Made by a program: the position numbers and the translations under genes
Assembly: GCA_020724955.1 (NCBI GenBank)
Contig: DYFY01000001.1
Span: forward strand, 2,046 to 66,045
Reading direction: 5' to 3'
Length of the DNA stretch: 64,000 nt
Source: Candidatus Parvarchaeum sp.
GTDB lineage: Archaea > Nanobdellota > Nanobdellia > Pacearchaeales > GW2011-AR1
Shown here: piece by piece, positions 640 through 46,391 of the stretch
Numbering within the stretch: the stretch's first letter is position 1
Layout of the letters: each line of letters begins with the position of its first letter
Notes under the pieces: generated by a model
Databases searched by the model: none
Told to the model about the DNA's origin: nothing
What the model saw: only the letters and a program-made list of their open reading frames with translations

Positions 640-1700
640 GTAGATTAAATCAGTTTATTAAAATTGCTAAATTGATTAAACCTTACTCATCTTAATCAAA
701 TCCAGCCACTTATTAACCCCTAATTCTAATTGAGGTATAGCAACTTCCGCAGGTGTCTTTTTGCCTAAAGACATATGTTTTCTATTAAAATTATAGTTAA
801 TTTCTAGACCTTTCATTATTGCGTGAGCAGATTCTAAACAACCATGAAAACCCCTCATGACCTTTGTTCTTTCTCTAATTGTATTATGCAATCTTTCAAT
901 AGGATAATTAAACCCTCTTTCATCTGCTATCACAACATTATGAACTATCTTACTTTTAGTTCTAGAAGAGGCATGATAAGGAGATTGTAAACTGAAGACT
1001 TTTCTTAATACTCTTGGATAGCCTCTTAATCCATCTGTTGTAACAATCTCAACTTGTTCTCCAACTTTAAACTTTGCTCTTTTCATAACTTTAATTAAAT
1101 TCTCATTAGTCCTACTTCTCATATATTCACCTGTTACCATAAATTTAGTTTCTACATCAAAAGCATCAACAAACCAATTCTGTTCTTTACCTTTCTGATA
1201 TTTACTTTTTCTTCTATAATATTCCATTTCATCGCTTTGCATTTCTTTCCCGCATTTTATTGGAATATTATCAATTAAGTTGCTGACCATTGTAGCATAT
1301 TTTACAATCCACCTATAAACTGACATATGGCTTGAATTATGAGGATAAAAAGCTTGAAAATGCTCTTGCACCTTTCTTAATGAAACGCCTTTGTAATATA
1401 AATCAATTCCAGCAGTAATTTTGTTCTCATTATTCCTCATTCTATAAAAACCATCATCAATAACAAATCTGAAGTTGCATTCATTACATCTATATCTTTG
1501 TATCTTTCCCCTGTTCTGCGTTTTTCTTTTACCATCTTTTTTAATCTGATTAAAATTACATTTAGGACAGATTACATTTTTATACTTCTGCTGAATTATA
1601 TCTTTGGATTTCATTTTGGTTGGTAGCCGATTTGGAATCTAGAGGGCTTTACGCCCTCTTTATTTTTACTTAACTAATAACTAATTATATAAGTAAGTTA
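640..1700. mobile_element. IS6-family-like insertion sequence carrying a single transposase. Boundaries are approximate; terminal inverted repeats were not resolved.
   Basis: A transposase ORF lies between a gene start (631) and an unrelated small gene (1793). A 7-bp-stem hairpin (AGAGGGC tttac GCCCTCT) sits at 1631-1649 in the flank. Family assignment is inferred from the transposase motifs. Confidence 0.4.
676..1614 (-). CDS. DDE transposase, IS6-family-like, with an N-terminal zinc ribbon
   Basis: N-terminal CPKC...CNEC zinc finger. DDE-region motifs are VDAFDVETKF and EIVTTDGLRGY. The C-terminal block IERLHNTIRERTKVMRGFHGCLESAHAIMKGLEINYNFNRKHMSLGKKTPAE resembles the IS6 (IS26-type) transposase tail. 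Confidence 0.75.
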   Translation of the reverse strand: MKSKDIIQQKYKNVICPKCNFNQIKKDGKRKTQNRGKIQRYRCNECNFRFVIDDGFYRMRNNENKITAGIDLYYKGVSLRKVQEHFQAFYPHNSSHMSVYRWIVKYATMVSNLIDNIPIKCGKEMQSDEMEYYRRKSKYQKGKEQNWFVDAFDVETKFMVTGEYMRSRTNENLIKVMKRAKFKVGEQVEIVTTDGLRGYPRVLRKVFSLQSPYHASSRTKSKIVHNVVIADERGFNYPIERLHNTIRERTKVMRGFHGCLESAHAIMKGLEINYNFNRKHMSLGKKTPAEVAIPQLELGVNKWLDLIKMSKV

Positions 1701-8009: not shown

Positions 8010-8258
8010 ATGGTAATGGATACAATTCAGGTAAGGTTGGGTCCAGGTCTTGTAAAGAAAATAGATGAATTAGTTGGAACTGGAGTTTATTCTAGTCGGT
8101 CGGATGTATTGAGGGACGCTGTCAGAAGGCTTGTTTTAGATAAATTAGCGGGAGTAATTTCTGGAAAAGAAGATTCAATAAAACAAATAAAGAATATACG
8201 AAAGAATTTATCTAAAGAGAAGTTTGATTTGGATGAAATAAACTCGCTTGCAGATTAA
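8010..8258 (+). CDS. Ribbon-helix-helix (CopG-like) DNA-binding protein, possible antitoxin
   Basis: MVMDTIQVRLGPGLVKKIDELVGTGVYSSRSDVLRDAVRRLV fits the RHH fold pattern. The start is moved to the internal ATG at 8010; the ORF-track start is 7938. Confidence 0.55.
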   Translation: MVMDTIQVRLGPGLVKKIDELVGTGVYSSRSDVLRDAVRRLVLDKLAGVISGKEDSIKQIKNIRKNLSKEKFDLDEINSLAD

Positions 8259-8680
8259 ACTTCTTCCGGTTTTGAAACTTTCACATGTTTTTTGGCGAAA
8301 ATTATTAACTCTTCATCTCTTGTTATAAGATTTAAATTTAATCTCTTAGCGATTGCAATATGAATATAATCATAAAAACTTAGAGAATTATCCTCTTTCT
8401 CCCATTTTCTTGCAAGATCATAATCTTCTGGATATGTTTTGATAATTTTAACACATTCGGATTCTTTCAGAAAATCCTTAATCGGTTTAAATTTGTTTCT
8501 TGCCACAAAATAAATTTCTTTTAAGGCTATACTGGAAACTATTATTTTCTCATTGTTTTCCTCAACTTTCTCAATAAAATTCCTGGCAGATTTCCAGTAA
8601 GGCTTGTTCTTTTCTGGACCTGTTTCTTTTTTGAATAAATTAAGCCAAATACAAGTGTCTAAATAATAGTCAGTCTTCAT
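8255..8680 (-). CDS. PIN-domain protein (VapC-like ribonuclease)
   Basis: N-terminal YLDTCIWLNLF with the conserved Asp, and later acidic residues, in a 141-aa PIN-like layout. Confidence 0.7.
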   Translation of the reverse strand: MKTDYYLDTCIWLNLFKKETGPEKNKPYWKSARNFIEKVEENNEKIIVSSIALKEIYFVARNKFKPIKDFLKESECVKIIKTYPEDYDLARKWEKEDNSLSFYDYIHIAIAKRLNLNLITRDEELIIFAKKHVKVSKPEEV

Positions 8681-8773
8681 TTAGGTACAAGAAACCACAA
8701 TTTAATAAAACTAATCTTGTAGTTCAGACTCTCGGTTTTTCCAAAATAAATATTTAGCGATAGTAAAAAGTGA

Positions 8774-8857
8774 CGCCCGGACCAGGATTTGAACCTGGGA
8801 ATCCACGAGGGAAACGGGATTAGCAATCCCGCGCCGTAACCACTGGGCCATCCGGGC
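8774..8857 (-). tRNA. tRNA-Ser(GCT), class II with long variable arm
   Basis: Reverse complement is GCCCGGA..GGGAT-TGCTAAT-ATCCC..long variable arm..CCAGG-TTCAAAT-CCTGG-TCCGGGC-G. Anticodon GCU. CCA is not encoded. Confidence 0.85.
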
Positions 8858-8914
8858 ACAACTTATTAGGACAGAATTAGCTTTTAAATATTGCCCAGGC
8901 AAAACTCACGAAGT

Positions 8915-9298
8915 TTACTTTCTCTTCTTATTAGGAAACGCCCATTTTCCAAGACCAAAAGCATACATCACAATTAACGATACGAATATCAGCAAATCTC
9001 TTTCCAGTCCGGAGCCAATTCCTCTTTCCATTGAGCCGGGTATTTGAACTCCGAGCAGAGCCACTATTATTACTGCAAACAACGGATATATTATGTAAGG
9101 GAACCATAAGCCGATAATTAACAAGATTCCGAACACTACTTCCACTATCCCGACCAACATTCCAATTTCTCCGGGAAGCCCTAAAAGAGCCGGAGAGCTT
9201 CCTATTTTGGGATATCCATGCCAGACAAAAACAAGCCCAACCAGAACTCTAAGCAAAAATAATGAAATTCCTTTCACAGACTCTTTATTGCTCGGCAT
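8915..9298 (-). CDS. DoxX-family membrane protein
   Basis: LLRVLVGLVFVWHGYPKI and four TM helices are typical of DoxX. Confidence 0.65.
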   Translation of the reverse strand: MPSNKESVKGISLFLLRVLVGLVFVWHGYPKIGSSPALLGLPGEIGMLVGIVEVVFGILLIIGLWFPYIIYPLFAVIIVALLGVQIPGSMERGIGSGLERDLLIFVSLIVMYAFGLGKWAFPNKKRK

Positions 9299-9408
9299 GT
9301 AGCGGAGAGCTTTTCGGACTTTTTATATCTTTTTGTTTTTTAAATAAGAGCGCTTAAAATTGCACAAAAAAGCCAGTCTTACTGAATATGAAACAAAGAT
9401 GATCTTCT

Positions 9409-9651
9409 TTATTTTTCATATTTGTTTTCTTTCAGCTTTTTTTCAGCCCTTTCAATCATATTCTTCTTCAGACCTATGAACACACCGCCGTCCTTTCCGC
9501 CGACGTAAGTGTTTTCTCCTGATTTTATTATTTTGTTTAATTCAGGGAGCTCTATATCAATGTGAGTTACACTGGCATTTGATTTGCCTTTCAGGTGCAG
9601 ATAAACATCTGCTTTTCCGATTTTTATTTTTCCTTCTCCAGGTCCTGACAT
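9409..9651 (-). CDS. Hypothetical small protein
   Basis: 80-aa Gly/Lys-rich ORF with no recognisable motif. Confidence 0.35.
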   Translation of the reverse strand: MSGPGEGKIKIGKADVYLHLKGKSNASVTHIDIELPELNKIIKSGENTYVGGKDGGVFIGLKKNMIERAEKKLKENKYEK

Positions 9652-9703
9652 AAATTAAGCAGGACGCTAAAGTTTAAAAGTGCTTCTTTGCCATTAATAT
9701 TGC

Positions 9704-9779
9704 AGCGGGGTGGAGTAGCCTGGTTAACTCGCGAGGCCCATAACCTCGAGATCGCGGTGTTCAAATCCCGCCCCCGCTA
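9704..9779 (+). tRNA. tRNA-Met(CAT), initiator-like A1:U72
   Basis: Acceptor AGCGGGG/CCCCGCT. D stem GAGT/ACTC. Anticodon stem CGAGG/CCTCG with loop CCCATAA. T loop TTCAAAT. A1:U72 is characteristic of archaeal initiators. The T stem needs a bulged U, so the fold is slightly irregular. Confidence 0.75.
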
Positions 9780-9797
9780 TATGAAAAAAGGAGTGAG

Positions 9798-10466
9798 ATG
9801 TTGATTTTAGGCATAGACGACGCAGGACGCGGGCCTTTGATAGGGCCTATGGTTTTGGCAGGTGTTCTTGTTACGGCGGAGCAGGAAAAAAAACTGAGGT
9901 CTTTAGGGGTAAAAGACTCAAAGCTTGTTTTACATTCTTCAAGAATAAAAATAGCAAAGGAAATAGAAAAAATATCCAGGAGAGTTTATCTTGTGATTTC
10001 AACTCCGGAAGAAATAGATTTTTCAATAAGTTCTGGAATTAATTTAAACACTCTGGAAGCAAAAAAAACAGCGGAGATAATTAATTTTTTGAATTTAAAA
10101 AAGGAAAAAATAAAAGTCATAGTTGACTGCCCGTCTGTCAATACAGTTGCCTGGAAAAATAAGCTTCTTGAGTTTATATCCCACGCAGAAAATCTGATTG
10201 TTGTTTGCGAACACAAGGCGGATTTCAATCATCCTTCAGTATCGGCGGCGTCTATTCTTGCCAAAGTAAGGAGGGAAGAGGAAATTTCCAGATTAAAGGA
10301 AAAGTTTGGGGATTTCGGTTCAGGATATCCTTCCGACCCTTTGACGAAGAATTTTCTTAAAATGCGCGGAAATGCCCTGAAGAATTCCGGAATATTCAGA
10401 AAAACATGGGCTACCTGGAAAGATGTATTCCCGGATAAAAAACAGAAGAAGCTGTTTGACTTCTGA
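9798..10466 (+). CDS. rnhB: Ribonuclease HII
   Basis: LGIDDAGRGPLIGPMVLAGVLV, the RNase HII active-site motif GIDEAGRGP. 222 aa. Confidence 0.85.
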   Translation: MLILGIDDAGRGPLIGPMVLAGVLVTAEQEKKLRSLGVKDSKLVLHSSRIKIAKEIEKISRRVYLVISTPEEIDFSISSGINLNTLEAKKTAEIINFLNLKKEKIKVIVDCPSVNTVAWKNKLLEFISHAENLIVVCEHKADFNHPSVSAASILAKVRREEEISRLKEKFGDFGSGYPSDPLTKNFLKMRGNALKNSGIFRKTWATWKDVFPDKKQKKLFDF

Positions 10467-10757
10467 AAGTTTTTCTCTAATTTCAGTTGAGACTTATCTG
10501 AGCACAATGACATAGATTTTTTTGGTTTTAACAATTTTTTTATCCTTAAATTTTCCTGTAAAGTAAACTTTCCAATTTAACATAGTAAAAAAAGAGATTT
10601 TCCAATCATTTCTTGAGTTCTATATTAAAATTAAGATAATTATTAATTATGCGAACCTTGCTTTATACAGATTATATAGGGAGCGTTAAGTTATAAACTG
10701 GACTTAACATTTCCAAAACTTATATAAAACCTGTTTCTTTTTTCCAGTTGTTATAAA

Positions 10758-11831
10758 ATGCCGTTGCTTGATGATTTATCTGGGTTTCAATTTTGGAATA
10801 ACACTGGAAGGGATTATTTGGTAGCTTTGGCTGTTTTTGCAGGGTTGTTTGTCTTTTTTAAGATATTTGACAGATATCTGGTTGTTTTGTTCAAGAAAGC
10901 TGCCAGGAAGACGAAGTTTGGGTGGGATGATATTGTTTTTGATTTTTTCAGTGCAATACACTGGCAGTTTTATGCTTATATCTCATTTTATGCAGCTTCT
11001 GTTTATCTTGTGCTTCCAGAACTGCTTGACAGGGCTCTTTATTATCTGCTCATAATTTTCATAGCTTTTTATGCGGCTCAGGGGCTTTCAAGAGTAGTTG
11101 ACCATTTTACCAATAGGCAGATAGAAAAAAGGAAGCAGTCAGATAATTCATCCAACACTTCAATGATAAAAACTTTTGGCACTATTTTTAAAATAGCAAT
11201 CTACAGCGTTGGACTGCTTATGGTTTTAGCCAATTTAGGGATAGAAATAACTCCTCTTATAGCTTCTTTAGGGGTTGGCGGAATCGCAATAGCCATAGCC
11301 TTGCAGTCTGTTTTGTCAGACATGTTTGCAGCCTTTGCTATTTATTTTGACAAGCCTTTCAAGGAAGGGGATTTCATAATTATAGGAAATGATATGGGGA
11401 CTGTGAAGCACATTGGAATTAAAACTACCAGAATCCAGTCTCTTGGAGGGCAGGAGCTTGTAGTTTCAAATACAGAGCTGACAAATTCAAGAATTAATAA
11501 CTACAAGAGAATGCAGGAAAGAAGGATAGCTTTTTCTTTCGGAGTTGAATACAACACACCTTCAAAGAAATTGAAAAAAATAAATTCTATTGTAAAGAGA
11601 GCGGTTGAAACTACTAAAAACACAAGATTTGACAGGTCGCATTTTAAGGAGTTTGGAGATTCGAGCCTGAATTATGAAGTTGTTTATTATGTTAAAAGCG
11701 CGGATTATAATGTTTACATGGATGTTCAACAAGAGATACATTTCAAGATAAAAGAGGCGTTTGAAAAGGAAAAAATTGCATTTGCTTTTCCAACACAGAC
11801 TATCTATGTAGAGGGATTTAAGAAGAAGTAA
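10758..11831 (+). CDS. Mechanosensitive ion channel, MscS family
   Basis: TM helices followed by the MscS beta domain: DKPFKEGDFIIIGNDMGTVKHIGIKTTRIQSLGGQELVVSNTEL. Confidence 0.8.
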   Translation: MPLLDDLSGFQFWNNTGRDYLVALAVFAGLFVFFKIFDRYLVVLFKKAARKTKFGWDDIVFDFFSAIHWQFYAYISFYAASVYLVLPELLDRALYYLLIIFIAFYAAQGLSRVVDHFTNRQIEKRKQSDNSSNTSMIKTFGTIFKIAIYSVGLLMVLANLGIEITPLIASLGVGGIAIAIALQSVLSDMFAAFAIYFDKPFKEGDFIIIGNDMGTVKHIGIKTTRIQSLGGQELVVSNTELTNSRINNYKRMQERRIAFSFGVEYNTPSKKLKKINSIVKRAVETTKNTRFDRSHFKEFGDSSLNYEVVYYVKSADYNVYMDVQQEIHFKIKEAFEKEKIAFAFPTQTIYVEGFKKK

Positions 11832-11894
11832 GATAATTATGTGGGCACGAATTTACTAGATAAATATTTGTGCCCATATACTCGCATAAAATGT

Positions 11895-12893
11895 TTAATC
11901 AATTAAATTAAAATCTCTCAAGTTTTCTTCCAGACTCTTTATGAGAAAAGGAAAAATCAATGAATAATCTCCATTATTTCCTTTCCTAACTGCTTCAAGA
12001 TACTTTTGCCTTTGTTTATTATAAACGTTAATCCAGGGATAACCTTTTTTACCTAGAAGAAAATTCATAACAAGCCTTGATAATCTTCCGTTTCCATCTA
12101 CAAAGGGGTGTATTGTAACAAGCTCCATAGATGTAATAACCGCCAGTTCAAATTGATGATACTTGTTTTTGTTTTTTTTATACCTATACACTAAGTTTTT
12201 CACAAGCTGCGGTACTTTTTCAGCATCCGGGAATTTAACATCGCTCCCAAATATTCTTACATTTGTTTCTCGATATCTGCCTGCAAACCTGTCAGAAATA
12301 TTTTTTAGAATAAGCGAATGCAGACTTAATATAAATGCCTCAGTAAGTTCTCCTTTGTAAGATTTAACAAACTTTATTGCTTCTAGATGGTTTTTCGCTT
12401 CATGTATCTCTCTCAGAGTTTTTCCTTCAGGAGCAAGCCCTTCATTTATCACAAGGTTTGTTTCCTGCAACGAGAGGGAGCTTCCTTCTATCGCATTGCT
12501 GTTATATGTAAGTTCTGTAAAAAAAGCTTTCTCGAATTGCTCATATTCTTCTTTTCTCAAGTTTTTTATTTTTTTATTGTATGTTTTTTTCAGAATCTCT
12601 ACTTTTCTCACTTCTTCCTTTTTCAGGAAAGGATATTTTTTTTCTGATATGATTTCAATTTCAAAATTTTCCTTTAGTTCTTCAATTTTCTTTTTAGTAA
12701 TCTCGCCATAACCAAGAAATTTTGATTTTTTTGTCCACTTCCCGTTTTTCCTCTTATTGCTAATAAGATAATTGGCTTTTTTTCCATCCACATTCCTTAC
12801 TTCATGATAAACCATAATCTTATATATGGGCACATATTTATAAGTCTTTTGTCTGTGCCCATATAGTTGATAGATGGCTTCAGGAAGAAGCAA
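11895..12893 (-). CDS. Fic-family protein (AMPylation/phosphocholination fold) with an N-terminal Lys-rich extension
   Basis: Fic motif HPFVDGNGRLSRL. Upstream SNAIEGS matches the inhibitory SxxxEG helix. Confidence 0.8.
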   Translation of the reverse strand: MLLPEAIYQLYGHRQKTYKYVPIYKIMVYHEVRNVDGKKANYLISNKRKNGKWTKKSKFLGYGEITKKKIEELKENFEIEIISEKKYPFLKKEEVRKVEILKKTYNKKIKNLRKEEYEQFEKAFFTELTYNSNAIEGSSLSLQETNLVINEGLAPEGKTLREIHEAKNHLEAIKFVKSYKGELTEAFILSLHSLILKNISDRFAGRYRETNVRIFGSDVKFPDAEKVPQLVKNLVYRYKKNKNKYHQFELAVITSMELVTIHPFVDGNGRLSRLVMNFLLGKKGYPWINVYNKQRQKYLEAVRKGNNGDYSLIFPFLIKSLEENLRDFNLID

Positions 12894-12900
12894 TCGGTTT

Positions 12901-14424
12901 CTAAAGAATAATTGTGCTTTCTTTGTCAGGTCCTGTTGAGATCATAGCAACTTTTGCCTCTGTATATCCTTCAAAGTCTTCAATCGCTGTGTGAAATTGG
13001 GCTGGCAAGTCAGAGAAACTTTCTGCGCTTCTGATTTCATCCCCAAAACCTTTGTAATGTCTAAGAATCGGAACAGCGTTTCTTTGATCAGATACTCTTC
13101 TGCTAAATCTGTCACTTGCCTTACCTTCTCCGTAATTGTGTCCAAAACAAACTTCGAAGCTATTCACACCTACAACAGAATCTGGTTTTGTTAAAACTAC
13201 TTTTAGAGGCGCATTGATACCAATTGCATATCTTGCTGCAACAGCATCTGTCCAGCCAATTCTTCTTGGTCTTTGCGTTGTTGCCCCGTATTCATCGGCA
13301 GCTAAACGTATTCCGACTCCTTGTATAAATTCATTATCACTATTCATCAATTCAGCAATCTTGTCCATGTTGTTTCTTACATATAAGCGAGCTTGTTTTG
13401 TCAGTTTTGTGATCTCACTGATGTCTCCTCTTTCTCTCAATTGTTTTATTTCATTTAAATCGAAATTTCCGCTTAGGTAAGTATTTACTTCATAAAATAC
13501 GTCGTGGTCAACTCCTGCTGCGCAATACTCTTCTGATTCTTTTCCTCCAAGCTCTGTTACAAAAGGACCTCCTCCAACTCTAGTCATAAAAGGAAACTTG
13601 ACAATTCCTAAAACCAAATCAACAGCTTTGGCAGATAATCCAACTCCTCCTGCAGTTCCATTTATAGAGCTGTCAGAAGATGTAACGTAGGGTTTCACAC
13701 CATGCTCGATGCTCAGAAGAGTCCCTTGCGCCCCTTCCAATACTATTCTCTTTTTTTGCCTAATAAAATCGTGCATCAATGCCACAGTATCTGTCACAAA
13801 AGGTTCTAATTTTTGAGCGCAAGGATTTAATTCATCAATAATTTCATCAGTATTGATCTTTTGGCCTGGATATATCTCTCTCATTTTTTTGATTTTTGCG
13901 GCAAGAGTATCTCTATCAAATAGATCTCTGATGTCAATTCCTATTCTTGCTGTCTTGTCTGCATAAGCAGGTCCTATGCCTCTTCCTGTTGAGCCAATTC
14001 CTCCATCTCTCAGAGATTTATTTTTTTGTCTATCTGATTCAATATGCCATGGCATAATCACTCCAGCATCTTCGCTGATTCTTAGATTATTGTAGGTTCC
14101 TCCTACAGCCTCTAAATTGTCAAGCTCATGGCAAAGGGCAAAAGGATCAATTACCATTCCGCTCCCCAATACATTGGTTTTTCCTGCAGAGTCATATGTT
14201 ATTCCAGCAGGAAGCAAATGATAAATTCTTTCCTGTTCGTTAACGATTACTGTATGTCCGGCATTATTTCCTCCTGTGCCTCTTGCAATAACATCTGCCC
14301 ATTGAGAGGCAAGAAGATCTACAATTTTGCCCTTGCCTGTATCTCCATACTGCATACATACTACCGCCGCTATTTGCACTCCATCAACAAGTTTCTCCAA
14401 TCCACTTTTAACCATGTTTTTCAA
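12901..14424 (-). CDS. purA: Adenylosuccinate synthetase
   Basis: MQYGDTGKGKIVDLL (the QWGDEGKGK P-loop) and GGNNAGHTVIV. Long, eukaryote-like form at 507 aa. Confidence 0.85.
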   Translation of the reverse strand: MKNMVKSGLEKLVDGVQIAAVVCMQYGDTGKGKIVDLLASQWADVIARGTGGNNAGHTVIVNEQERIYHLLPAGITYDSAGKTNVLGSGMVIDPFALCHELDNLEAVGGTYNNLRISEDAGVIMPWHIESDRQKNKSLRDGGIGSTGRGIGPAYADKTARIGIDIRDLFDRDTLAAKIKKMREIYPGQKINTDEIIDELNPCAQKLEPFVTDTVALMHDFIRQKKRIVLEGAQGTLLSIEHGVKPYVTSSDSSINGTAGGVGLSAKAVDLVLGIVKFPFMTRVGGGPFVTELGGKESEEYCAAGVDHDVFYEVNTYLSGNFDLNEIKQLRERGDISEITKLTKQARLYVRNNMDKIAELMNSDNEFIQGVGIRLAADEYGATTQRPRRIGWTDAVAARYAIGINAPLKVVLTKPDSVVGVNSFEVCFGHNYGEGKASDRFSRRVSDQRNAVPILRHYKGFGDEIRSAESFSDLPAQFHTAIEDFEGYTEAKVAMISTGPDKESTIIL

Positions 14425-15886
14425 ATCTAATTTCTTTATTTCTAACTCCGTTCTGCAATTTTTTTATATCTCTACAATTCATGCTTGCAAAAGAATGTCT
14501 AAGAGCATCAATCATAGAAGGGAAACTATCGTGTATACTTCCTCTAAAAGGAATTATCGTGACAATTCCTTCTTCATGTCTTCCATAACCTCTAATTCTT
14601 TCATCTCCTCCAACATTAGCTTTTTTTGAACCCATGCCCCAATATTGTTTTACAGGAACGCCTCTTTCGTCATAAACAACCTCTCCAGGACATTCTTTGT
14701 GGCCTGCTAGCATTCCTCCTAACATAACAGCTCCAGCCCCTAGGCCAAGTGCTTTAAAGATATCTCCAGTTTCTTTTAAGCCTCCATCAGCTATGGCTAC
14801 TATTCCGCTTCCAATATCTTCTCTGTCAGCTTTTGCACATTCATATACAGCAGTTGCGTTTGCCCTTCCTATTCCAATGACTTTTGCGGTAGTGCAGATT
14901 GACCCGGAGCCCTGTCCGCATCTATAGGCGTCTACAAATCCCCTTTGAGCTAACGCTCTTGCAGCTTCAGCGGTCGAAATATTACCTCCAATTAGCAATT
15001 TGTCTGGATAATTTTTAGCTATATGCTCTAACATATCTATTGCAAGTTTAGTATAACCTTGCGAAGTATCAACAACTACTCCGTCAGCTCCAGCTTTAAA
15101 TCCTTCTTTAACTCTCTCGTAGGATTCCGGCCAGGTGCTAACTGCAAACAAAACTCTTAATCTTCCATTTTCGTCAATAGTAGAATCGGGAAAGTCAAAT
15201 CTTTTTTCTATGTCTCTTCTTGTTACAAGGTAAGCAAGGTTACCTTTTTCATCAACTATCGGCAGAGATTTTATTCTTTTTTCCCATAAAATTTCTTTTG
15301 CTTGTTCTAGAGTTATCCCGCTTTTGCCTGTAATTAATTTTTCCATATCAAGCATTCTGTCCCTAACAAGACAGTCCAGGCGTTCACCTGGAAAATAATC
15401 GTCTTCTCTCAGTAGTCCAACAAGTGTTCCATTACTCTTTCCGTTTTGTGTTACTGGGAATGTGTTGATAAGATTACCTCCTACTTTGTTGGCTTCTGCT
15501 ATTTCCAAAACGCGTGAAATTGTCATTTCTGGAGCAACTACTATTGGATTTTCTATGAAGCCAGCTTGGTATCTTTTCACTCTGCTTATATCTTCAACTT
15601 GTTTGGGTATGCTTGGTCTTCCTTCTGCGTCTTTATGGTTATAGTGAATGACTGCAATGCCTCCAAGTTGGGCCATTGCTATTGCCATTTCAGGACTTAC
15701 AACAGAATCCATTGGAGAAGCCATTATAGGGACAGCTAATTCAATTCCTTTTCCTAAACTCGTTCTTAAAGAAACATCTTGTTTAGTTATCGTAGAAAAT
15801 TGAGTACCAAGAAGATCAAAGCCATCGTAGGTGATTCCAATTCCTCTTACAAACAATTCTTCAGCGCTAAGTCCAGAGCGAACCAT
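14408..15886 (-). CDS. guaB: IMP dehydrogenase with CBS pair
   Basis: Catalytic loop GQGSGSICTT and internal CBS domains. The start is placed at the internal Met (MVRSG...) to leave room for a divergent promoter. The longest ORF starts at 15967, only 9 bp from the divergent SMC start. Confidence 0.8.
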   Translation of the reverse strand: MVRSGLSAEELFVRGIGITYDGFDLLGTQFSTITKQDVSLRTSLGKGIELAVPIMASPMDSVVSPEMAIAMAQLGGIAVIHYNHKDAEGRPSIPKQVEDISRVKRYQAGFIENPIVVAPEMTISRVLEIAEANKVGGNLINTFPVTQNGKSNGTLVGLLREDDYFPGERLDCLVRDRMLDMEKLITGKSGITLEQAKEILWEKRIKSLPIVDEKGNLAYLVTRRDIEKRFDFPDSTIDENGRLRVLFAVSTWPESYERVKEGFKAGADGVVVDTSQGYTKLAIDMLEHIAKNYPDKLLIGGNISTAEAARALAQRGFVDAYRCGQGSGSICTTAKVIGIGRANATAVYECAKADREDIGSGIVAIADGGLKETGDIFKALGLGAGAVMLGGMLAGHKECPGEVVYDERGVPVKQYWGMGSKKANVGGDERIRGYGRHEEGIVTIIPFRGSIHDSFPSMIDALRHSFASMNCRDIKKLQNGVRNKEIRFEKHG

Positions 15887-15976
15887 CAACAGTTTTGGAA
15901 ATCTTTGCTTAAAAATATTGTTGGGCTGAAAATTAGTATAATAAACTTTTATATATCCTTTTCTCAATATCTTTGA

Positions 15977-18952
15977 ATGACTTATATCAAGAAGCTGATT
16001 ATGCAGGGATTCAAGTCTTTTGCCCCCAAAACGGAGATTAACTTTGATAAAGGCATTAATGTCATAGTAGGTCCAAATGGTTCGGGAAAGTCCAACATAT
16101 CGGATGCTTTATGTTTTGTTCTGGGGCGTCTTTCTATAAAATCCATGCGTGCGGCAAAATCAAAGAATCTTCTTTTTATGGGTACAAAGATTCACAAGCC
16201 TGCCAGAGAAGCTTCTGTTGAGATTGTATTTGACAACTCTCAAGGAACTTTTAATCTTCCTGTGAACGAGGTTTCGCTGAAGCGCACTGTAAAGCACAAC
16301 GGGCAGGGAGTCTATAAGATAAATAATGAGGTTAAAACCCGCTCTGATGTGATAGAAACACTTGCCCAAGCCGGAATTGATCCACATGGATTCAATCTTG
16401 TGTTACAAGGGCAGATTCAGGCGATAGTAAAAATGCATCCTGAGGAAAGAAGAAAAATAGTTGAAGAAGTTGCTGGAATTTCAATTTATGAATCAAGAAA
16501 GGAAAAATCTCTGAAGGAACTTGAAAAAACGGAATTGCGGCTGAAAGAAATTTCAACTATCCTGAGGGAGAGGCGTTCGTTTTTAAGCAATCTGGAAAAG
16601 GAGCGTTCACAGGCTTTGAAATACAAAGAATTGGAAACTACGATAAAACGTTGCAAGGCTTCAATTCTTCATAAAAAAATAAATGACAAAGAGCGTGAGC
16701 TGAGTTCTGTTCAGAAGTCCATTTCTGAAAAGCTTGAGAAAAAAGAGAAGATAAAAAGCAGGATTCTTGAGTTGCAGAACAAAATAGACTCTTTTAATGA
16801 AAGTATTGCTAAAATAAACAAACATATACAGCGTTCAACAGGAGTGGAGCAGGAATCGTTGAGAAATCAGGTTTCAAATTTAAGGGCAGAGATAGAGGGG
16901 CTTAAAGTCAGAAGAGAAAATTATGAGAACAGAAGTGCGGAAATTCAGAGGAGAATTGCGGAAATGGAGAAGTCATTGCCTGGTTATGAAACCGAGATAA
17001 AGAGCCTGAGAAGGGAGACTCCCATTATCGCCCAAAAACAGGAAGAGCTCAGGAAGAAGAAAAAAGAATTGCAGGAGCTTGAAGAGGAAAAAAGAAAAAT
17101 TTATTCTTTGAAGACGGAGCTTTCTTCGGTGAAAGAGAGGATAAAAGACAAGGAAGCTGAAATTCAGAGGATAGGCAGGCAGTCTGATTTAGTTTTGAAA
17201 GAAATAGAGTCTTTGTCTTCTGAACTTGAACACGAGACTCTGGAAATGTGTTATAATGAGCTTGAGAAGCTCAAAAAAATCCTTAAGGAAAACAGGCAGA
17301 AGAGTGATGAAATGTCAAAAAAGGAAATTGAAGCCAATAAGCTGATTTCTTCGGCTCAGACTACAATTTCACACTCTGAAGAAATAAAATCAAAAATAAC
17401 TAAGCTGGATGTTTGTCCTTTGTGCCAGAACAAAATGACTGAACAGCATGTGTTTCATGTAACAAAAGAGTCTGATTCAAAAATATTTGCCGCTAAAAAA
17501 TCCATGAATGAGGCTGAGAAATCACTTGCGGAATTGGCGGAGAGCAGAAAGAGATTATTATCTGAGATTTCTTCATTGCAGCAGAAAATTTCGGCTTTAG
17601 AAAACCAGCATTCAAGCCATCAATTGATTGAACATAAAAAGTCTTATATGAAGAACCTTGTTGAGCATGAAAATTCTTTGAGAATGGAATTGTCTTCTCT
17701 TATTTCCAAAAGGGATTTTCTGCAGGCTCAGACTCTTGACACTTCCAGAATCGATGAAAAATATGCCGGCAAGATAATGGAAATAGAGGAGATCTCGGCC
17801 AGGACGTCGGAAGATCTGGACAAAACTTTAATGTATAAAGAGCGCGAGCTTGAGAAAATAAGGGAGGTTATCAAGTTGTCCAAGCGCGATTTGAATGAAA
17901 TGGAGCAGGAGATTTTTGATATACAAACGGATATTGAGGCTAAATCCTCTCTTTTGGAGCTGAAGGAGGCAGAGGACAAGGAGTTGTCGGAAAGGTTCAG
18001 GAAGCTTTTTGCTGAGAGGGATTCAGCCCAAGAGAAAATCCAGCAGTCAAGCCTTTCTCTTTCAGAGGCGCAGACCGAGCTTTATCAGATTGAAGACCAA
18101 ATAAATTACCTTAAGGTTGGAAACGCGAAACTAGGGGCTGAAAAGGAAGCTCTTGAAATGGAGATAAAAGAGTATTCAGGCGCTGAGATTATAAAGGGCT
18201 CGCTTGAGTTTTTACAAGAGAGGCTTAAAAAGTCGCAGGAGGCGATTCAAATAATAGGCTCAATCAATATGAGAGCGTTGGAAGTGTACGATGAAGTGAA
18301 ACAAGAGTATGACAAAGTTCAGGAAAAGGTGGAGACTCTTGAGAAGGAGAAGCTTCAGATAATGGGAATCATAGAGGAGATAGACAAAAAAAAGAAGCGC
18401 ACCTTTATGAAAACCTACAAAGGAATTAATGAACTTTTTAGCTCGAATTTTTCAAGGCTCTCATCTAAAGGAAGGGCTTTTCTCGAGATAGAGGATAATG
18501 AAAATATTTTTGAAGGAGGAGTAAATATAGTGGTTAAGCTGGCGAAAGGAAAGTATTTTGATGTGACTTCTCTTTCCGGAGGAGAGCAGACCCTCATAGC
18601 TATTTCTCTTCTTTTTGCGATTCAGGAATACAGACCTTATCATTTTTATATACTTGATGAGATAGATGCTGCGTTGGACAAGAGAAACTCGGAACGCCTT
18701 TCAGCTTTGCTCAGAAAATACATGACAAAGGGCCAGTATATTGTCATCACACATAACGACGCTTTGATAATGGATTCAAATATCCTTTATGGAGTTTCAA
18801 TGCATGACGGAATTTCCAAGGTTTTTGGCCTAAAGCTTGATGAAGAAGTGGCTGAGGCTCAGGGCACTCATGGCGCTCAAAGCCAGAGCAATTCTCTTCC
18901 TGAACAGACGCACGATTTGCATGACCAGACCGGAGAGAATAATCAGGTATAG
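15977..18952 (+). CDS. SMC-family ATPase with a Rad50-like CxxC zinc hook in place of a hinge
   Basis: N-terminal MTYIKKLIMQGFKSF...VIVGPNGSGKSNISDALCFVLG is the SMC head Walker A. C-terminal LSGGEQTLIAISLLFAIQEYRPYHFYILDEIDAALD is the SMC signature plus D-loop. The middle is continuous heptad-like sequence interrupted only by LDVCPLCQNKM, a CxxC. No ~150-aa hinge is present; the protein is 991 aa. Confidence 0.8.
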   Translation: MTYIKKLIMQGFKSFAPKTEINFDKGINVIVGPNGSGKSNISDALCFVLGRLSIKSMRAAKSKNLLFMGTKIHKPAREASVEIVFDNSQGTFNLPVNEVSLKRTVKHNGQGVYKINNEVKTRSDVIETLAQAGIDPHGFNLVLQGQIQAIVKMHPEERRKIVEEVAGISIYESRKEKSLKELEKTELRLKEISTILRERRSFLSNLEKERSQALKYKELETTIKRCKASILHKKINDKERELSSVQKSISEKLEKKEKIKSRILELQNKIDSFNESIAKINKHIQRSTGVEQESLRNQVSNLRAEIEGLKVRRENYENRSAEIQRRIAEMEKSLPGYETEIKSLRRETPIIAQKQEELRKKKKELQELEEEKRKIYSLKTELSSVKERIKDKEAEIQRIGRQSDLVLKEIESLSSELEHETLEMCYNELEKLKKILKENRQKSDEMSKKEIEANKLISSAQTTISHSEEIKSKITKLDVCPLCQNKMTEQHVFHVTKESDSKIFAAKKSMNEAEKSLAELAESRKRLLSEISSLQQKISALENQHSSHQLIEHKKSYMKNLVEHENSLRMELSSLISKRDFLQAQTLDTSRIDEKYAGKIMEIEEISARTSEDLDKTLMYKERELEKIREVIKLSKRDLNEMEQEIFDIQTDIEAKSSLLELKEAEDKELSERFRKLFAERDSAQEKIQQSSLSLSEAQTELYQIEDQINYLKVGNAKLGAEKEALEMEIKEYSGAEIIKGSLEFLQERLKKSQEAIQIIGSINMRALEVYDEVKQEYDKVQEKVETLEKEKLQIMGIIEEIDKKKKRTFMKTYKGINELFSSNFSRLSSKGRAFLEIEDNENIFEGGVNIVVKLAKGKYFDVTSLSGGEQTLIAISLLFAIQEYRPYHFYILDEIDAALDKRNSERLSALLRKYMTKGQYIVITHNDALIMDSNILYGVSMHDGISKVFGLKLDEEVAEAQGTHGAQSQSNSLPEQTHDLHDQTGENNQV

Positions 18953-19123: not shown

Positions 19124-19381
19124 ATGGTGTGGCAGGATGTTGTTATTGCAATAGCAAATGTTCTTTTTGGATATTCTTTAGCTTTTCAAGTATATCATGG
19201 ATTTAAAGAGAAAAAGGGGTTTTTAACAATACAGGCATCTGCTCCAACAACATTAGGTTTGTATGCGTTGTCTTTTGCGTTTTTTACTCTTAATTTATAT
19301 TTATCTACATTAGTCTCATTTTTTAATGGGACAATGTGGCTTTTGCTGTTAATTCAAAGGTTAATCTACAAAAAAGCTTAG
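19124..19381 (+). CDS. Small membrane protein
   Basis: 85 aa with two to three TM helices. Confidence 0.3.
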   Translation: MVWQDVVIAIANVLFGYSLAFQVYHGFKEKKGFLTIQASAPTTLGLYALSFAFFTLNLYLSTLVSFFNGTMWLLLLIQRLIYKKA

Positions 19382-31248: not shown

Positions 31249-32355
31249 CTAATGCTGAGTTTGTGAAGTTAGTTGATTATTTACATGTTTCTCAATTTCT
31301 TTTATCAAGTCAACATATCCATTTATCATATTAAATTTTTCTGCATCCTTGAATCTTAATATTTCCAGCTTTCCGTCTTCTGCTTTTAAGCCCTCAAGTT
31401 TTGGCATGGGAGCTATATATACAAATGTTTCGTAATTGCAACCTGCTTGTTTTGAGTAGTGAGTCCATTTTTTGAATAGCTTATGCCCTTCTAACTCTAT
31501 TCCTAACTCTTCTTTTATCTCTCTTTTCAATGCTTGTTCAGGAGTTTCGTTGTCTTCAACATGTCCGCCAAAAAAATGATACTCTTCCCCCCATTTACTA
31601 ATTCCTTTTCTGTTTTGCAAGAGTATGTTCCCATTGGAGTCATAGAAAAGAATGTTTGCTGCCTGTAGCGTTTTTAGCTTTTCTGTTTCTTCATCAAAAA
31701 TCCCTTTAATCTCCTGAAAAACTTCTTCAGGAGAGCGCTCGCCGTTTATTATGAATATTTTTTCTCCTTTTTGTTTCTGAATTTCTGCAGCTTTCAGGTA
31801 GTTTTCTCTCAGCTTACTGATAAAGTCCAAGTGAGCTTCGAACTTGTGCTCTTTTCCCCTAATTTCTATTGAATCTTTTTTCATCCGCTCCATCGCTTTT
31901 TCAGGAGAAATATCTATTATGAAAGTAATTTCTGGGATCGGCAGATCGTTCTGTTTTTTTATCAGGTTTTCCATTGGAATTCCCTGAGCTGATTGATAAG
32001 CTATTGTGGAGAATTTATATCTGTCTGTTACCACGAAATGACCTTTTTCTAAGTTTGGCAGGATAAGCTCTTCGACCTGTTTTCTTCTGTCGTTTATAAA
32101 GAGCTCTGCAAGTTTGTCCGCCTGAGAAAGAGGATCGGAATCCTGTGTCAATATTGCTCTGATATTTGTATCCTTATAGGGATTTCTTGTCAGGACTATG
32201 TGGTGATGTTTGTCCTTTTCGAAAATATATTGGACAAGTTTTTTTATCTGCGTGCTTTTCCCGCAGCCGTCTATGCCTTCAAATGCTATGAAGATTCCAG
32301 TTCGGAAAGGTTTATTATTTGATGATAATGTCATGTTCTCCTCTTTTAGTATCAA
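31249..32355 (-). CDS. tmk: Thymidylate kinase fused to a C-terminal NUDIX hydrolase domain
   Basis: Tmk P-loop FIAFEGIDGCGKSTQ, then VLTRNP and DRYKFSTIAYQ. C-terminal Nudix box GGHVEDNETPEQALKREIKEELGIE. Confidence 0.7.
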   Translation of the reverse strand: MILKEENMTLSSNNKPFRTGIFIAFEGIDGCGKSTQIKKLVQYIFEKDKHHHIVLTRNPYKDTNIRAILTQDSDPLSQADKLAELFINDRRKQVEELILPNLEKGHFVVTDRYKFSTIAYQSAQGIPMENLIKKQNDLPIPEITFIIDISPEKAMERMKKDSIEIRGKEHKFEAHLDFISKLRENYLKAAEIQKQKGEKIFIINGERSPEEVFQEIKGIFDEETEKLKTLQAANILFYDSNGNILLQNRKGISKWGEEYHFFGGHVEDNETPEQALKREIKEELGIELEGHKLFKKWTHYSKQAGCNYETFVYIAPMPKLEGLKAEDGKLEILRFKDAEKFNMINGYVDLIKEIEKHVNNQLTSQTQH

Positions 32356-33658
32356 ATCTGTCGGGCTCTAAGTCAAAGTTTACCGGAATGCTCAATTCTT
32401 TTTCTATATACTCTCCAATTTTCTTTGCAATTCTTCTTAGTGTTGGATGGACAAATCTTGTGGATCTTAATTCAGCTACATAAATCATTGAAGGCAAATC
32501 CCCCACTACGAAGTTTGAAGTATTGTAACCCATTGGGATATAGTATTGTTTGATCTCGGGCTGAATATTCAATTCTTTTAGTTTTGCTTCCAAAATTCTT
32601 AGAAACTCTCTGGCTTCTCTTTTGGTGTTTTCTGAGAGATTGTCTAAATACCATTCATTGAAACCTATTTGAGTAGTTAATAATGGCATTCTTTGGTCAA
32701 TTCCTCTGTGTCTTTGAATGTCTCTAAACGAGCCAAAATCTAGCTTAAATTTGGAAGATATTCTTCCAATATGACTGAGAAATTTCGGGAGTTCTGTTTT
32801 TGCCGGGCGCTGTTGCAGCAACTCAAGATATTCTTTTAATAGGTTTTTGTTGATATCTGAGTTTATCTGAAAATCTGGACATTTTGGATCATGGTAGAAA
32901 TAATTTTTTGCAATAAGTTCTTGGTAATTTTCAGTATCGGAGTATCTTTTTTTTGTAAATGAGCTGGGGTGCGCTTCTATAACTGCGTCTTCTATTGCTT
33001 CTGCAATATTTCTTACTTCTTTTAGCGGATGATGCCTAAGAAAAAGCAATTTATCGGCAACTTGTCTTAAGTTTGAATGCCAGGCTAGTTTTGTAGATGC
33101 TCCGGCAGGAAGAAACCCTCTGGCGATGTCAAATGCTCTTGCGTTAATTGCTTTTTCGTATATGTTGTCTTTTTCTCCCTCTGGCTTTGGGTTTTGTTCT
33201 TTTAAGTAGACTTTTATAGGCTCTAGGATTTTTAGATAGAATTTTCTTTGGGATTCTAAAATTTCATTCCCTTTTTGAGAGCCCAATGGGTTGATAAATG
33301 GCTGATTTGAGAAGTCAATGTACCTTGTAGATGCCTCTTGTCCGCTGTATAGCTTATTGTCCTGAATTGCTTTTGCGGCAAGCATGGAGACTCCCTCTAT
33401 AAAAATTGTTGTGCTTCCGCAGTCTCCAATAGACTTATGCCCATATCCTACGTAAAATTTTTCCATAAAATTGGCGGAGCCTTTTTCTTCAAGAACTTCC
33501 AGGTGATTCTTAAGCCCTCCAAGTGACCTTGAATGAAGCGCTTGTAGCATCGCTTCTGATTCGCTGGTGATTGTTGCACCGGTGTCTAACACATAGACTT
33601 CTCCTCCTCCAGAAATTTTTCTATGCACATGCCTTAGAGATTTTGTTCCTGAGATCAT
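32315..33658 (-). CDS. thyX: ThyX-like flavin-dependent thymidylate synthase family protein, long 447-aa form
   Basis: SFRDIQRHRGIDQRM carries the ThyX RHR core. The RHR lies about 300 residues in, and the Ser of the canonical RHR-x7-S is not evident, so this is divergent or duplicated-fold. Confidence 0.55.
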   Translation of the reverse strand: MISGTKSLRHVHRKISGGGEVYVLDTGATITSESEAMLQALHSRSLGGLKNHLEVLEEKGSANFMEKFYVGYGHKSIGDCGSTTIFIEGVSMLAAKAIQDNKLYSGQEASTRYIDFSNQPFINPLGSQKGNEILESQRKFYLKILEPIKVYLKEQNPKPEGEKDNIYEKAINARAFDIARGFLPAGASTKLAWHSNLRQVADKLLFLRHHPLKEVRNIAEAIEDAVIEAHPSSFTKKRYSDTENYQELIAKNYFYHDPKCPDFQINSDINKNLLKEYLELLQQRPAKTELPKFLSHIGRISSKFKLDFGSFRDIQRHRGIDQRMPLLTTQIGFNEWYLDNLSENTKREAREFLRILEAKLKELNIQPEIKQYYIPMGYNTSNFVVGDLPSMIYVAELRSTRFVHPTLRRIAKKIGEYIEKELSIPVNFDLEPDRFDTKRGEHDIIIK

Positions 33659-45624: not shown

Positions 45625-46391
45625 GTGTATAGGGCATACAAAAGTATAAACTTTATATATGTGCTCTATTGTAACTATATTATGTTAGACATAAAAACTT
45701 TGGAAGGGTGGCTTTGGGAAGCTGCTTGTAAGATTCGAGGAGAAGTTGATGCCGCAAAATACAAAGATTATATTCTCCCTTTGATTTTCTTAAAAAGATT
45801 ATCTGATTTTTATGAAGACGACATTCAAAAGCTAACTGAAGAATATGGGGATAAAAAACGTCTGAAGAGTTGGTTGAAGAAGACCATAGTTTAGTCTGGT
45901 TTTATCTGCCAAAAGAATCAAGGTGGTCAAATATTATAAAACAGACTACAAAACTTGGAGAGATTCTTACTGATGCTGTTCGTTCTGTTGCAAAGACAAA
46001 TCCAAAACTTCAGGGAGTTATCGATTTTGTAGATTTTAATGCAACTGCTTCAGGTCAAAGAATTGTGGGCGATGATAAACTAAAATTACTAATTGATATT
46101 TTAAACAAACATAGACTTGGCTTGAGAGATGTTGAGCCAGATATTTTAGGTAGAGCTTATGAATATTTATTAAGAAAATTTGCAGAAGGCTCGGGACAAA
46201 GTGCAGGAGAATTCTATACTCCTAGAGAGGTTGCTGTTTTGATGGCGATGGTTGTTGAGCCAAAAGAAGGAGAAGAGGTTTACGATCCATGTTTGGGTTC
46301 TGGTGGTTTGTTAATAAAATGTCATTTAAGATTCAAAGAAAACTATGGAAACAACACAAAAATTAAACCTTTGAAATTCTATGGGCAATAA
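45625..46391 (+). pseudogene. hsdM: Type I restriction-modification HsdM methyltransferase, frameshifted and 3'-truncated
   Basis: Two overlapping ORFs in different frames (45625-45894 and 45870-46391). They carry the HsdM N-domain ([17 protein letters not shown]) and the motif region DILGRAYEYLLRKFAEGSGQSAGEFYTPREV...DPCLGSGGLL. Translation stops right after FYGQ, before the catalytic motif. Confidence 0.7.

Follow-up and report, generated by a model that had tools for sequence, protein, structure and literature searches.

In reviews, structural maintenance of chromosomes (SMC) proteins are defined by their hinge and Rad50 by its zinc hook (e.g. PMC10586767). The gene examined here appears to join the heads and arms of an SMC ATPase to a Rad50-type zinc hook. 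The gene lies within a 64,000-nucleotide stretch of DNA from Candidatus Parvarchaeum sp. (contig DYFY01000001.1 of assembly GCA_020724955.1, positions 2,046 to 66,045), the whole of which is referred to here as the window, and occupies window coordinates 15977..18952 on the plus strand, on which all of its parts described below also lie. Our analysis indicates that it most probably encodes a canonical-type SMC protein, the ATPase of prokaryotic condensin, from a Pacearchaeota-like group of DPANN archaea, in which the hinge of ~200 residues has been replaced, once, by a Rad50-type CPxC hook. The protein thus descends from canonical SMC, and would work like it, but it lacks the hinge, which is among the features that define SMC, and possesses the hook, which is among those that define Rad50.

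The open reading frame (ORF) list contains the complete gene, with an ATG start and 991 codons followed by a stop, intact and exactly of the extent given in an initial annotation of this DNA. Public assemblies contain an identical protein (P0001), the query's database annotation is 'chromosome segregation protein SMC', and at the N-terminus more than 100 orthologues align from residue 1. The product begins MTYIKKLIMQGFKSF, and its first 154 residues (15977..16438), which match SMC_N and AAA_23 in Pfam, are the N-terminal lobe of an SMC ABC-ATPase head; the C-terminal lobe, delimited by motifs and phmmer alignments, comprises residues 829-953 (18461..18835). All six ATPase motifs are present and are split between the two termini. 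The N-terminal lobe has FKSF (residues 12-15), Walker A GPNGSGKS (32-39, 16070-16093) and the Q-loop LQGQ (143-146, 16403-16414), and the C-terminal lobe has the signature LSGGE (866-870, 18572-18586), the Walker B and D-loop segment FYILDEIDAALD (890-901, 18644-18679) and the H-loop IVITH (922-926, with ITH at 924-926; 18740-18754). The motifs quoted previously as marks of an SMC-like head, FKSF among them, are all present.

Comparison of the heads with proteins of known structure and with curated families gives a consistent assignment. SMC_N covers residues 3-947 of the query (E 1.8e-50), and in phmmer searches of the PDB the best match is the Pyrococcus SMC head 5xei (E 4.4e-100, across head residues 1-309), followed by the Bacillus subtilis SMC head 5xg3 (E 2.5e-75) and then by eukaryotic SMC1-4. 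The SMC heads as a whole range from 4e-100 to 1e-45, as compared with about 1e-14 for Rad50 heads, none of which is better than 7e-15, and 1e-7 for SMC5; identity to a canonical SMC head reaches ~45%. Among NCBIfam models TIGR02169 (SMC_prok_A) scores 535.7 bits and TIGR02168 (SMC_prok_B) 525.9 bits, and both fall below their cutoffs, an equivalog cutoff of 729.4 for the former and 567.35 for the latter, because the middle of each model, where the hinge would be, is unmatched. The best Rad50 model, PRK03918, scores 111 bits and the Rad50 cutoffs of 700-1087 are failed, and RecN scores 51 bits. Judged by sequence, the heads are SMC-type and not those of Rad50.

The two lobes are separated by an ascending coiled-coil arm (residues 155-476, 16439..17404) and a descending one (residues 489-828, 17441..18460), both delimited by DSSP assignments in an AlphaFold2 model and by collinearity with hinge-bearing SMCs, and the first also by the conservation profile. 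In pairwise HMMER alignments of the query with ten hinge-bearing relatives, the stretch 1-480 of the query runs in parallel with 1-483 of a hinge-bearing SMC, and residues 500-953 with residues 719-1163 of the hinge-bearing protein P0179. This collinearity on both sides shows that the query has nearly full-length SMC arms and that ~235 residues, the hinge and its flanks, have been swapped for ~20. A full-length, single-chain AlphaFold2 model built on 54 orthologues has helices at 155-476 and 489-828, ~320-340 residues each, with only short breaks at 341-354, 416-421, 587-588, 605-616 and 732-742, the last of which corresponds to the joint; antiparallel packing of the arms is confidently modelled for residues 418-549 only. 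A Foldseek search with the full-length model ranks SMC, condensin and Smc5/6 chains first.

Two islands within the arms are strongly conserved (0.84), at residues 301-315 (16877-16921) and 601-615 (17777-17821). The second overlaps the predicted break at 605-616 and the first lies ~25 residues before that at 341-354; they could represent an elbow or a partner-binding site. Beyond the C-terminal lobe the query ends in an acidic or polar, low-complexity tail (residues 954-991, 18836..18949) that is not conserved (conservation 0.13, with a predicted local distance difference test score, pLDDT, of ~30). These 38 residues are rich in Q, E, H and S. Most orthologues lack them, being 954-956 residues long and ending at about query residue 954.

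No hinge was found between the arms by any of three approaches. Pfam does not report SMC_hinge (PF06470) in the query or in any of its 120 closest homologues; a custom hidden Markov model (HMM) of the hinge, built from 40 hinge-bearing relatives, has no match in the query, as compared with 60-328 bits in 94 relatives; and the full-length AlphaFold2 model of the query has no globular middle domain. Hook and hinge are mutually exclusive in the family, with 152 sequences having the hook, 94 having the hinge, and none having both. The lack of a central hinge, originally read from the letters of this one gene, is thus borne out.

The position of the hinge is taken by the apex LDVCPLCQNKMTEQHVFHV (residues 477-495, 17405..17461), recognised by its invariant C, P and C, by PF04423 (Rad50_zn_hook) and as a segment of the AlphaFold2 model. 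The query has five cysteines in total and a sole CxxC, C480-P-L-C483, within LDVCPLCQNKM (residues 477-487), with C480 and C483 the predicted zinc ligands. The initial annotation had recognised this hook motif correctly but had placed the CPLC codons at 17415-17426, one base away from their actual position at 17414-17425. An apex profile built by aligning segment 450-530 from 25 family members has as its top matches among PDB sequences the human RAD50 hook 5gox (E 0.0021), the Pyrococcus furiosus Rad50 hook 1l8d (0.019) and 6zff, and this search aligns the family and Rad50 hooks in the same register (CPLCQNKMTEQH versus CPVCGRELTDEH). PF04423 is the top Pfam family for all 25 of the apex segments, with a best E of 7.7e-7, and one orthologue (P0010) has a precomputed match to it.

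A second AlphaFold2 model, restricted to residues 418-549 and built on 28 diverse sequences, has a pLDDT of 95.6 and a predicted template modelling score (pTM) of 0.78, and runs from one helix through a 14-residue loop, in which a beta-bridge brackets CPLC, into a second helix. A Foldseek search of 350,542 PDB chains with this model ranks 1L8D ('Rad50 coiled-coil Zn hook') first, 5GOX fourth and 6ZFF seventh. The sequence profile and the predicted fold thus identify the apex as a Rad50-type hook, which would bind zinc, and agree with the earlier description of the protein as a hybrid of SMC head and zinc hook. None of 114 close homologues departs from the query at C480, P481, C483, H491 or V495, and 111 of them have H494; the C, P and C are kept without exception in all 120 near and all 32 distant sequences, down to 38% identity, which is far more than chance would explain. 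The hybrid proposal could have failed on a hinge in the middle of the protein, on heads resembling those of Rad50, or on a CxxC that orthologues do not keep, and on all three the results fall in its favour.

The query is one member of a large family. The protein database holds thousands of its relatives; the best 120 share 55-100% identity with it and are 946-1082 residues long, or ~1480-1575 where an intein is present, and those with names are 'chromosome segregation SMC family protein' entries from Pacearchaeota or Nanoarchaeota metagenome-assembled genomes (MAGs). When 1.84 billion cluster representatives (50% clusters) were searched exhaustively, the collinear relatives separated cleanly by length: the representatives of ~945-1023 residues, extending to 38% identity, all carry CPxC centrally and go unmatched by the hinge HMM, and those of ~1050-1200 residues match the hinge HMM at 60-328 bits and have no CPxC. 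Conservation is greatest in the C-terminal head lobe (0.87), is as high in the neck (residues 161-215) as in the heads (0.84), and at the hook (0.77) forms an island between distal arms at 0.33-0.46. Head, neck and hook are under strong purifying selection.

A scan of GTDB with a narrow hook motif, using one genome for each of 185,579 species, found 75 loci, 74 of which are in MAGs of Pacearchaeota or Nanoarchaeota or in MAGs labelled 'Woesearchaeota'. Each of these 74 archaeal loci has a hook-SMC gene, intact unless cut by a contig end, and the architecture is therefore present in at least 74 GTDB species. The sole non-archaeal match, in a Bacilli MAG (CALVVV010000046.1, L077:8654-8719), is weak, limited to ~20 residues at 59% identity (E 7e-4), and is probably unrelated.

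Several variants were seen among the relatives. Several hook-SMC orthologues of ~1450-1575 residues (P0015, P0030, P0099, P0103, P0118, P0119 and P0130; loci L012, L015, L024, L031, L039, L043 and L061) carry a LAGLIDADG intein of ~520 residues (PF14528, PF14890), and because the alignment breaks near query residues 28-38 the intein lies in or beside the Walker A loop. Mini-SMCs of 810-850 residues (P0218, P0225, P0226, P0229, P0233, P0236, P0245, P0255 and P0256) retain the hinge (150-238 bits, at about residues 300-560) on arms of about half the normal length. One MAG, CAYZSY01, has two full-length hook-SMC genes (L027:8654-11641 and L050:1101-3989) that are 61% identical, and is either a mixed bin or the host of true paralogues.

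To place the family we used a neighbour-joining tree of ~400 head columns from 80 full-length representatives. The hook-SMCs, together with four forms of ~800 residues that have neither hook nor hinge, constitute one clade (bootstrap 99/100), nested among hinge-bearing archaeal SMCs, of which the nearest with a name are from Woesearchaeota. No hinge-bearing sequence falls within the hook clade among the best 150 representatives. The head tree, the HMM scores and the phmmer searches thus all group the heads with SMC and not with Rad50, as the initial annotation had anticipated.

The genomic position of the gene leads to the same relatives. RNase HII, encoded in the window at 9798..10466 on the plus strand (Pfam) and used here as a context marker, lies upstream of smc in loci encoding hinge SMCs (L078-L080, from Woesearchaeota), hook-SMCs (L001 and the window) and apex-less SMCs (L086-L088). 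The order in L001, an 886-kb relative, is directly RNase HII, MscS and SMC. Genes for an Ig-like surface protein and an AP-endonuclease are found downstream in the window, L001, L002 and L086, and DUF7557 is common to the first three of these but not to L086. The RNase HII-linked locus shared with hinge-bearing relatives, taken together with nesting in their phylogeny, points to the query being the SMC orthologue of its lineage and not a substitute for Rad50, and the earlier suggestion that it may stand in for Rad50 is accordingly disfavoured.

MscS is encoded in the window at 10758-11831, and Fic, purA and guaB, inserted together on the minus strand (11895-15967; the comparable interval in L001 is 8166-12868), separate it from smc. 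Apex-less SMCs of ~780-804 residues, with neither hinge nor CxxC, are encoded by some Pacearchaeota (P0138/P0274, P0141, P0143 and P0146); their arms are ~75 residues shorter on each side, and the RNase HII-linked slot is kept (smc at L086:6279-8693).

The simplest history has two steps. A single replacement of hinge by hook would have occurred in situ in an ancestor of the Pacearchaeota-like clade, and the hook and the distal arm would have been lost later in some of its descendants. The apex-less forms are scattered inside the hook clade, which suggests that this secondary loss of the hook was repeated. The motif CP[LV]C-x3-[LM]-T-x-[EQ]-H, shared with archaeal Rad50, suggests that the hook was captured from an archaeal Rad50.

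How such a protein might work can be outlined by analogy. The chain would fold back on itself so that, by homology, the N- and C-terminal lobes make one ABC-ATPase head, and the two helices of ~320-340 residues, to judge from collinearity and AlphaFold2 secondary structure, would pair in antiparallel orientation into an arm essentially as long as that of a canonical SMC. The arm tips of two chains are presumably joined, as in Rad50, by one tetrahedral Zn2+ held by C480 and C483 of each; we infer this shared site from the likeness of the apex to solved hooks in sequence and fold and from the number of universally conserved ligands, just two in each chain. ATP-driven engagement and disengagement of the heads could then lead to DNA entrapment or loop extrusion, and so to chromosome organisation and segregation, with a kleisin presumably bridging the heads by binding to the cap and the conserved neck. 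Roles in DNA binding and DNA entry have been assigned to the hinge. A hook would provide constitutive dimerisation only, which would imply that the DNA-binding and gate roles of the hinge are dispensable in this lineage.

Several observations weigh against interpreting the protein as a canonical-type SMC with a Rad50-type hook. The head tree was built by neighbour-joining on ~400 columns, not by maximum likelihood. The query's own PF04423 score of 19.5 bits (E 9e-4) is under the gathering threshold of 24.3. The Foldseek E-values for the apex are weak (4e-3), as is expected for a helical hairpin, and the full-length AlphaFold2 model is only moderate (pLDDT 70.6, pTM 0.30), with a low-confidence C-terminal head lobe. 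Finally, no gene for ScpA, ScpB or any other kleisin or kite protein was found in the window or in ~10 kb around related smc genes, so that the holocomplex can only be proposed.

The search for partners used Pfam on all window ORFs of at least 150 residues and NCBIfam on those left unassigned. ScpA, ScpB, Rad50, Mre11, HerA and NurA were not found among these ORFs in the 64 kb, nor within ~10 kb of smc in five related loci, which comprise the hook-type L001 and L002, the hinge-type L078-L083 and the short-form L086-L088, nor in the 10 kb beyond the upstream end of the window (L085). A DPWDIDI-like motif of archaeal ScpA has no regular-expression match in the window or in 88 loci, which is weak evidence only. 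A 285-residue ORF downstream of a hinge smc (L082) was considered as a kleisin candidate on account of its size, and is a secreted repeat protein.

A further and bolder reading is rather unlikely. It holds that hook-SMC is the sole long-armed ATPase of the SMC superfamily in Pacearchaeota-type DPANN, perhaps in the absence of Rad50, that its hook was captured from an archaeal Rad50 by recombination, and that it serves both chromosome folding and the tethering of DNA ends or sisters. Should this be correct, the apex-less descendants of ~800 residues would be SMC motors working without a dedicated module for dimerisation at the arm tips.

It is improbable that the gene is instead a neo-functionalised SMC paralogue, acting in repair or tethering and coexisting with a hinge-bearing SMC-ScpAB encoded elsewhere in the genome. 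The 61% identical pair in one MAG makes extra copies conceivable, and no kleisin gene is adjacent. Against this, the hook-SMC gene occupies the RNase HII-linked slot that holds the hinge SMC gene in the sister lineage, the hook clade replaces hinge SMCs in the tree within which it is nested, with no hinge sequence inside it among the best 150 representatives, and near-complete contigs of 0.4-0.9 Mb occur once each among the best 120 matches. The constraint on head and neck is also as strong as in canonical SMC.

There is a similarly small chance that the CPxC and two histidines, H491 and H494, make up an intramolecular C2H2-type zinc knuckle that caps the hairpin, with dimerisation provided elsewhere, by rod contacts, heads or kleisin. 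In the near subfamily every sequence has H491 and 117 of 120 have H494, zf-Di19 and similar small zinc fingers are matched weakly, and the existence of apex-less descendants of ~800 residues suggests that a dimeriser at the apex may not be essential. Among the 32 distant hook-SMCs, however, both cysteines are invariant but the histidine at +14 is retained in just 12, and that at +11 in 27, with Y, E or A in the other five. The Pyrococcus Rad50 hook likewise has a histidine at +11, equally spaced from the first cysteine. In the 1L8D crystal structure zinc is reportedly held by four cysteines, two from each of two chains, and the top matches to the apex in both sequence and fold are intermolecular Rad50 hooks. 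With only two universal ligands per chain, an intermolecular four-cysteine site like that of Rad50 fits the conservation pattern, and a C2H2 knuckle fits it less well.

Membership of the ASRP family (ClsN/coalescin and Sph1/2) is very unlikely, even though ASRPs are archaeal, SMC-related and mostly zinc-hooked (PMC9389158). The query has a partial match to the ASRP model NF045487, but its score of 116.5 bits is far short of the 300-bit cutoff and the aligned part is confined to residues 18-304, and the model has 593 positions as compared with the 991 residues of the query. The ASRP clade is moreover separate from SMC, and the query lies within canonical SMC.

The view that this is a Rad50/SbcC-type ATPase of double-strand-break repair with an unusually SMC-like head is effectively refuted. 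The apical CPxC hook of Rad50 type, a length of ~900-1000 residues resembling that of archaeal Rad50, and the end-to-end, if weak, alignment of Rad50 NCBIfam models all speak for it. However, SMC models score about five times as many bits as Rad50 models (536 vs 111), SMC heads in the PDB match at 1e-100 as opposed to 1e-14 for Rad50, both arms match SMC arms residue for residue, and the protein is nested inside hinge-bearing SMCs. Mre11/SbcD in archaea is usually encoded together with HerA and NurA. None of mre11, herA and nurA is present in the 64 kb or in the related loci examined, consistent with the previous statement that no such gene adjoins smc. The remaining explanation, that an artefact of assembly or annotation or a decaying pseudogene with a deleted hinge is responsible, draws on the metagenomic origin of the contig and the non-conserved C-terminal tail and is refuted by a frame open over 991 codons, by the same architecture in more than 150 distinct sequences and in 74 GTDB species, drawn from independent studies, and by strong conservation of motifs, neck and hook.

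In terms of known systems, the query shares with canonical SMC (5XEI/4I99, TIGR02169) the head, the ATPase motifs, the neck, the joint and collinear arms, and with the hinge SMC of the sister lineage the genomic slot beside RNase HII. It differs from canonical SMC in having a CPxC hook of ~20 residues in place of the PF06470 hinge and its flanks (~235 residues), and in falling short of the TIGR02169 cutoff for equivalogs (536 against 729 bits). With the Rad50 hook (PF04423; 1L8D, 6ZFF and 5GOX) it shares an antiparallel coiled coil that has a CPxC at its tip, and with the archaeal Rad50 hook in particular the motif and spacing CP[LV]C-x3-[LM]-T-x-[EQ]-H. Unlike Rad50, the query carries the hook on an SMC head and SMC arms, and no Mre11 gene is present in the loci examined; the near subfamily also has Q484, H494 and V495 as additions to the hook.

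The closest counterpart is an engineered one. Burmann et al. 2017 (PMC5344682) report that B. subtilis Smc in which the hinge is swapped for the P. furiosus Rad50 hook, Smc(Zh), shows near-normal association of the arms and supports normal growth in nutrient-rich medium, and Tatebe et al. 2020 (PMC6969161) report that hook and hinge are interchangeable in Rad50. Smc(Zh) and the query both have an SMC head and arms with a Rad50 hook replacing the hinge, and the junctions are at equivalent arm positions, ~480 and ~690-720 of canonical SMC. In contrast to the laboratory construct, the query is natural, its family is old enough for divergence to 38% identity, and it is fixed in a whole archaeal clade. 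The ASRPs (ClsN/coalescin of Sulfolobus and Sph1/Sph2 of Halobacterium) are likewise archaeal ATPases of the SMC superfamily with an apical zinc hook, but they form a separate clade of shorter proteins (593-position model), whereas the query belongs to canonical SMC. Hinge-less SMCs described as new biology in marine Actinobacteria, explicitly without a CXXC (Sussfeld et al. 2025, PMC12153180), are bacterial and are nearer to the apex-less Pacearchaeota variants of ~800 residues than to hook-SMC. The full-text literature, searched without subscription-only papers, yielded no account of a naturally occurring zinc-hook SMC from DPANN, Pacearchaeota or other archaea.

If the preferred reading is right, and the gene encodes a canonical-type SMC whose hinge gave way to a Rad50-type hook, then the hook-SMCs are a natural, clade-wide counterpart of Smc(Zh), a type of chimera otherwise known from laboratory engineering, and the engineered equivalent has already shown that such proteins can function. 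The existence of the clade favours the view that the hinge is essential simply for joining two arms. The clade also provides a natural minimal SMC, tuned by evolution, for structural and single-molecule work, and the series from hinge to hook to nothing at one locus offers a test of which SMC functions need an apex. For genome annotation, HMM cutoffs that depend on the hinge miss hook-SMCs as SMC equivalogs.

The immediate neighbours of smc are as described in the initial annotation. Upstream, on the minus strand, are guaB/IMPDH (14408-15967) and purA, encoding adenylosuccinate synthetase (12901-14424), and downstream is an ORF for a hydrophobic product of 85 residues with no family match (19124-19381). 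Further away, the window has a DDE/Mutator-like transposase ORF (676-1614, minus strand) and a compact cluster for dTMP metabolism (31249-32355 and 32315-33658, both on the minus strand), in which a thymidylate kinase-NUDIX fusion of 368 residues adjoins a long ThyX (447 residues) and another NUDIX protein. A 173-residue ORF at 45870-46391 on the plus strand covers no more of an HsdM type I methyltransferase than its N-terminal part, and this fragment may be a restriction-modification remnant.

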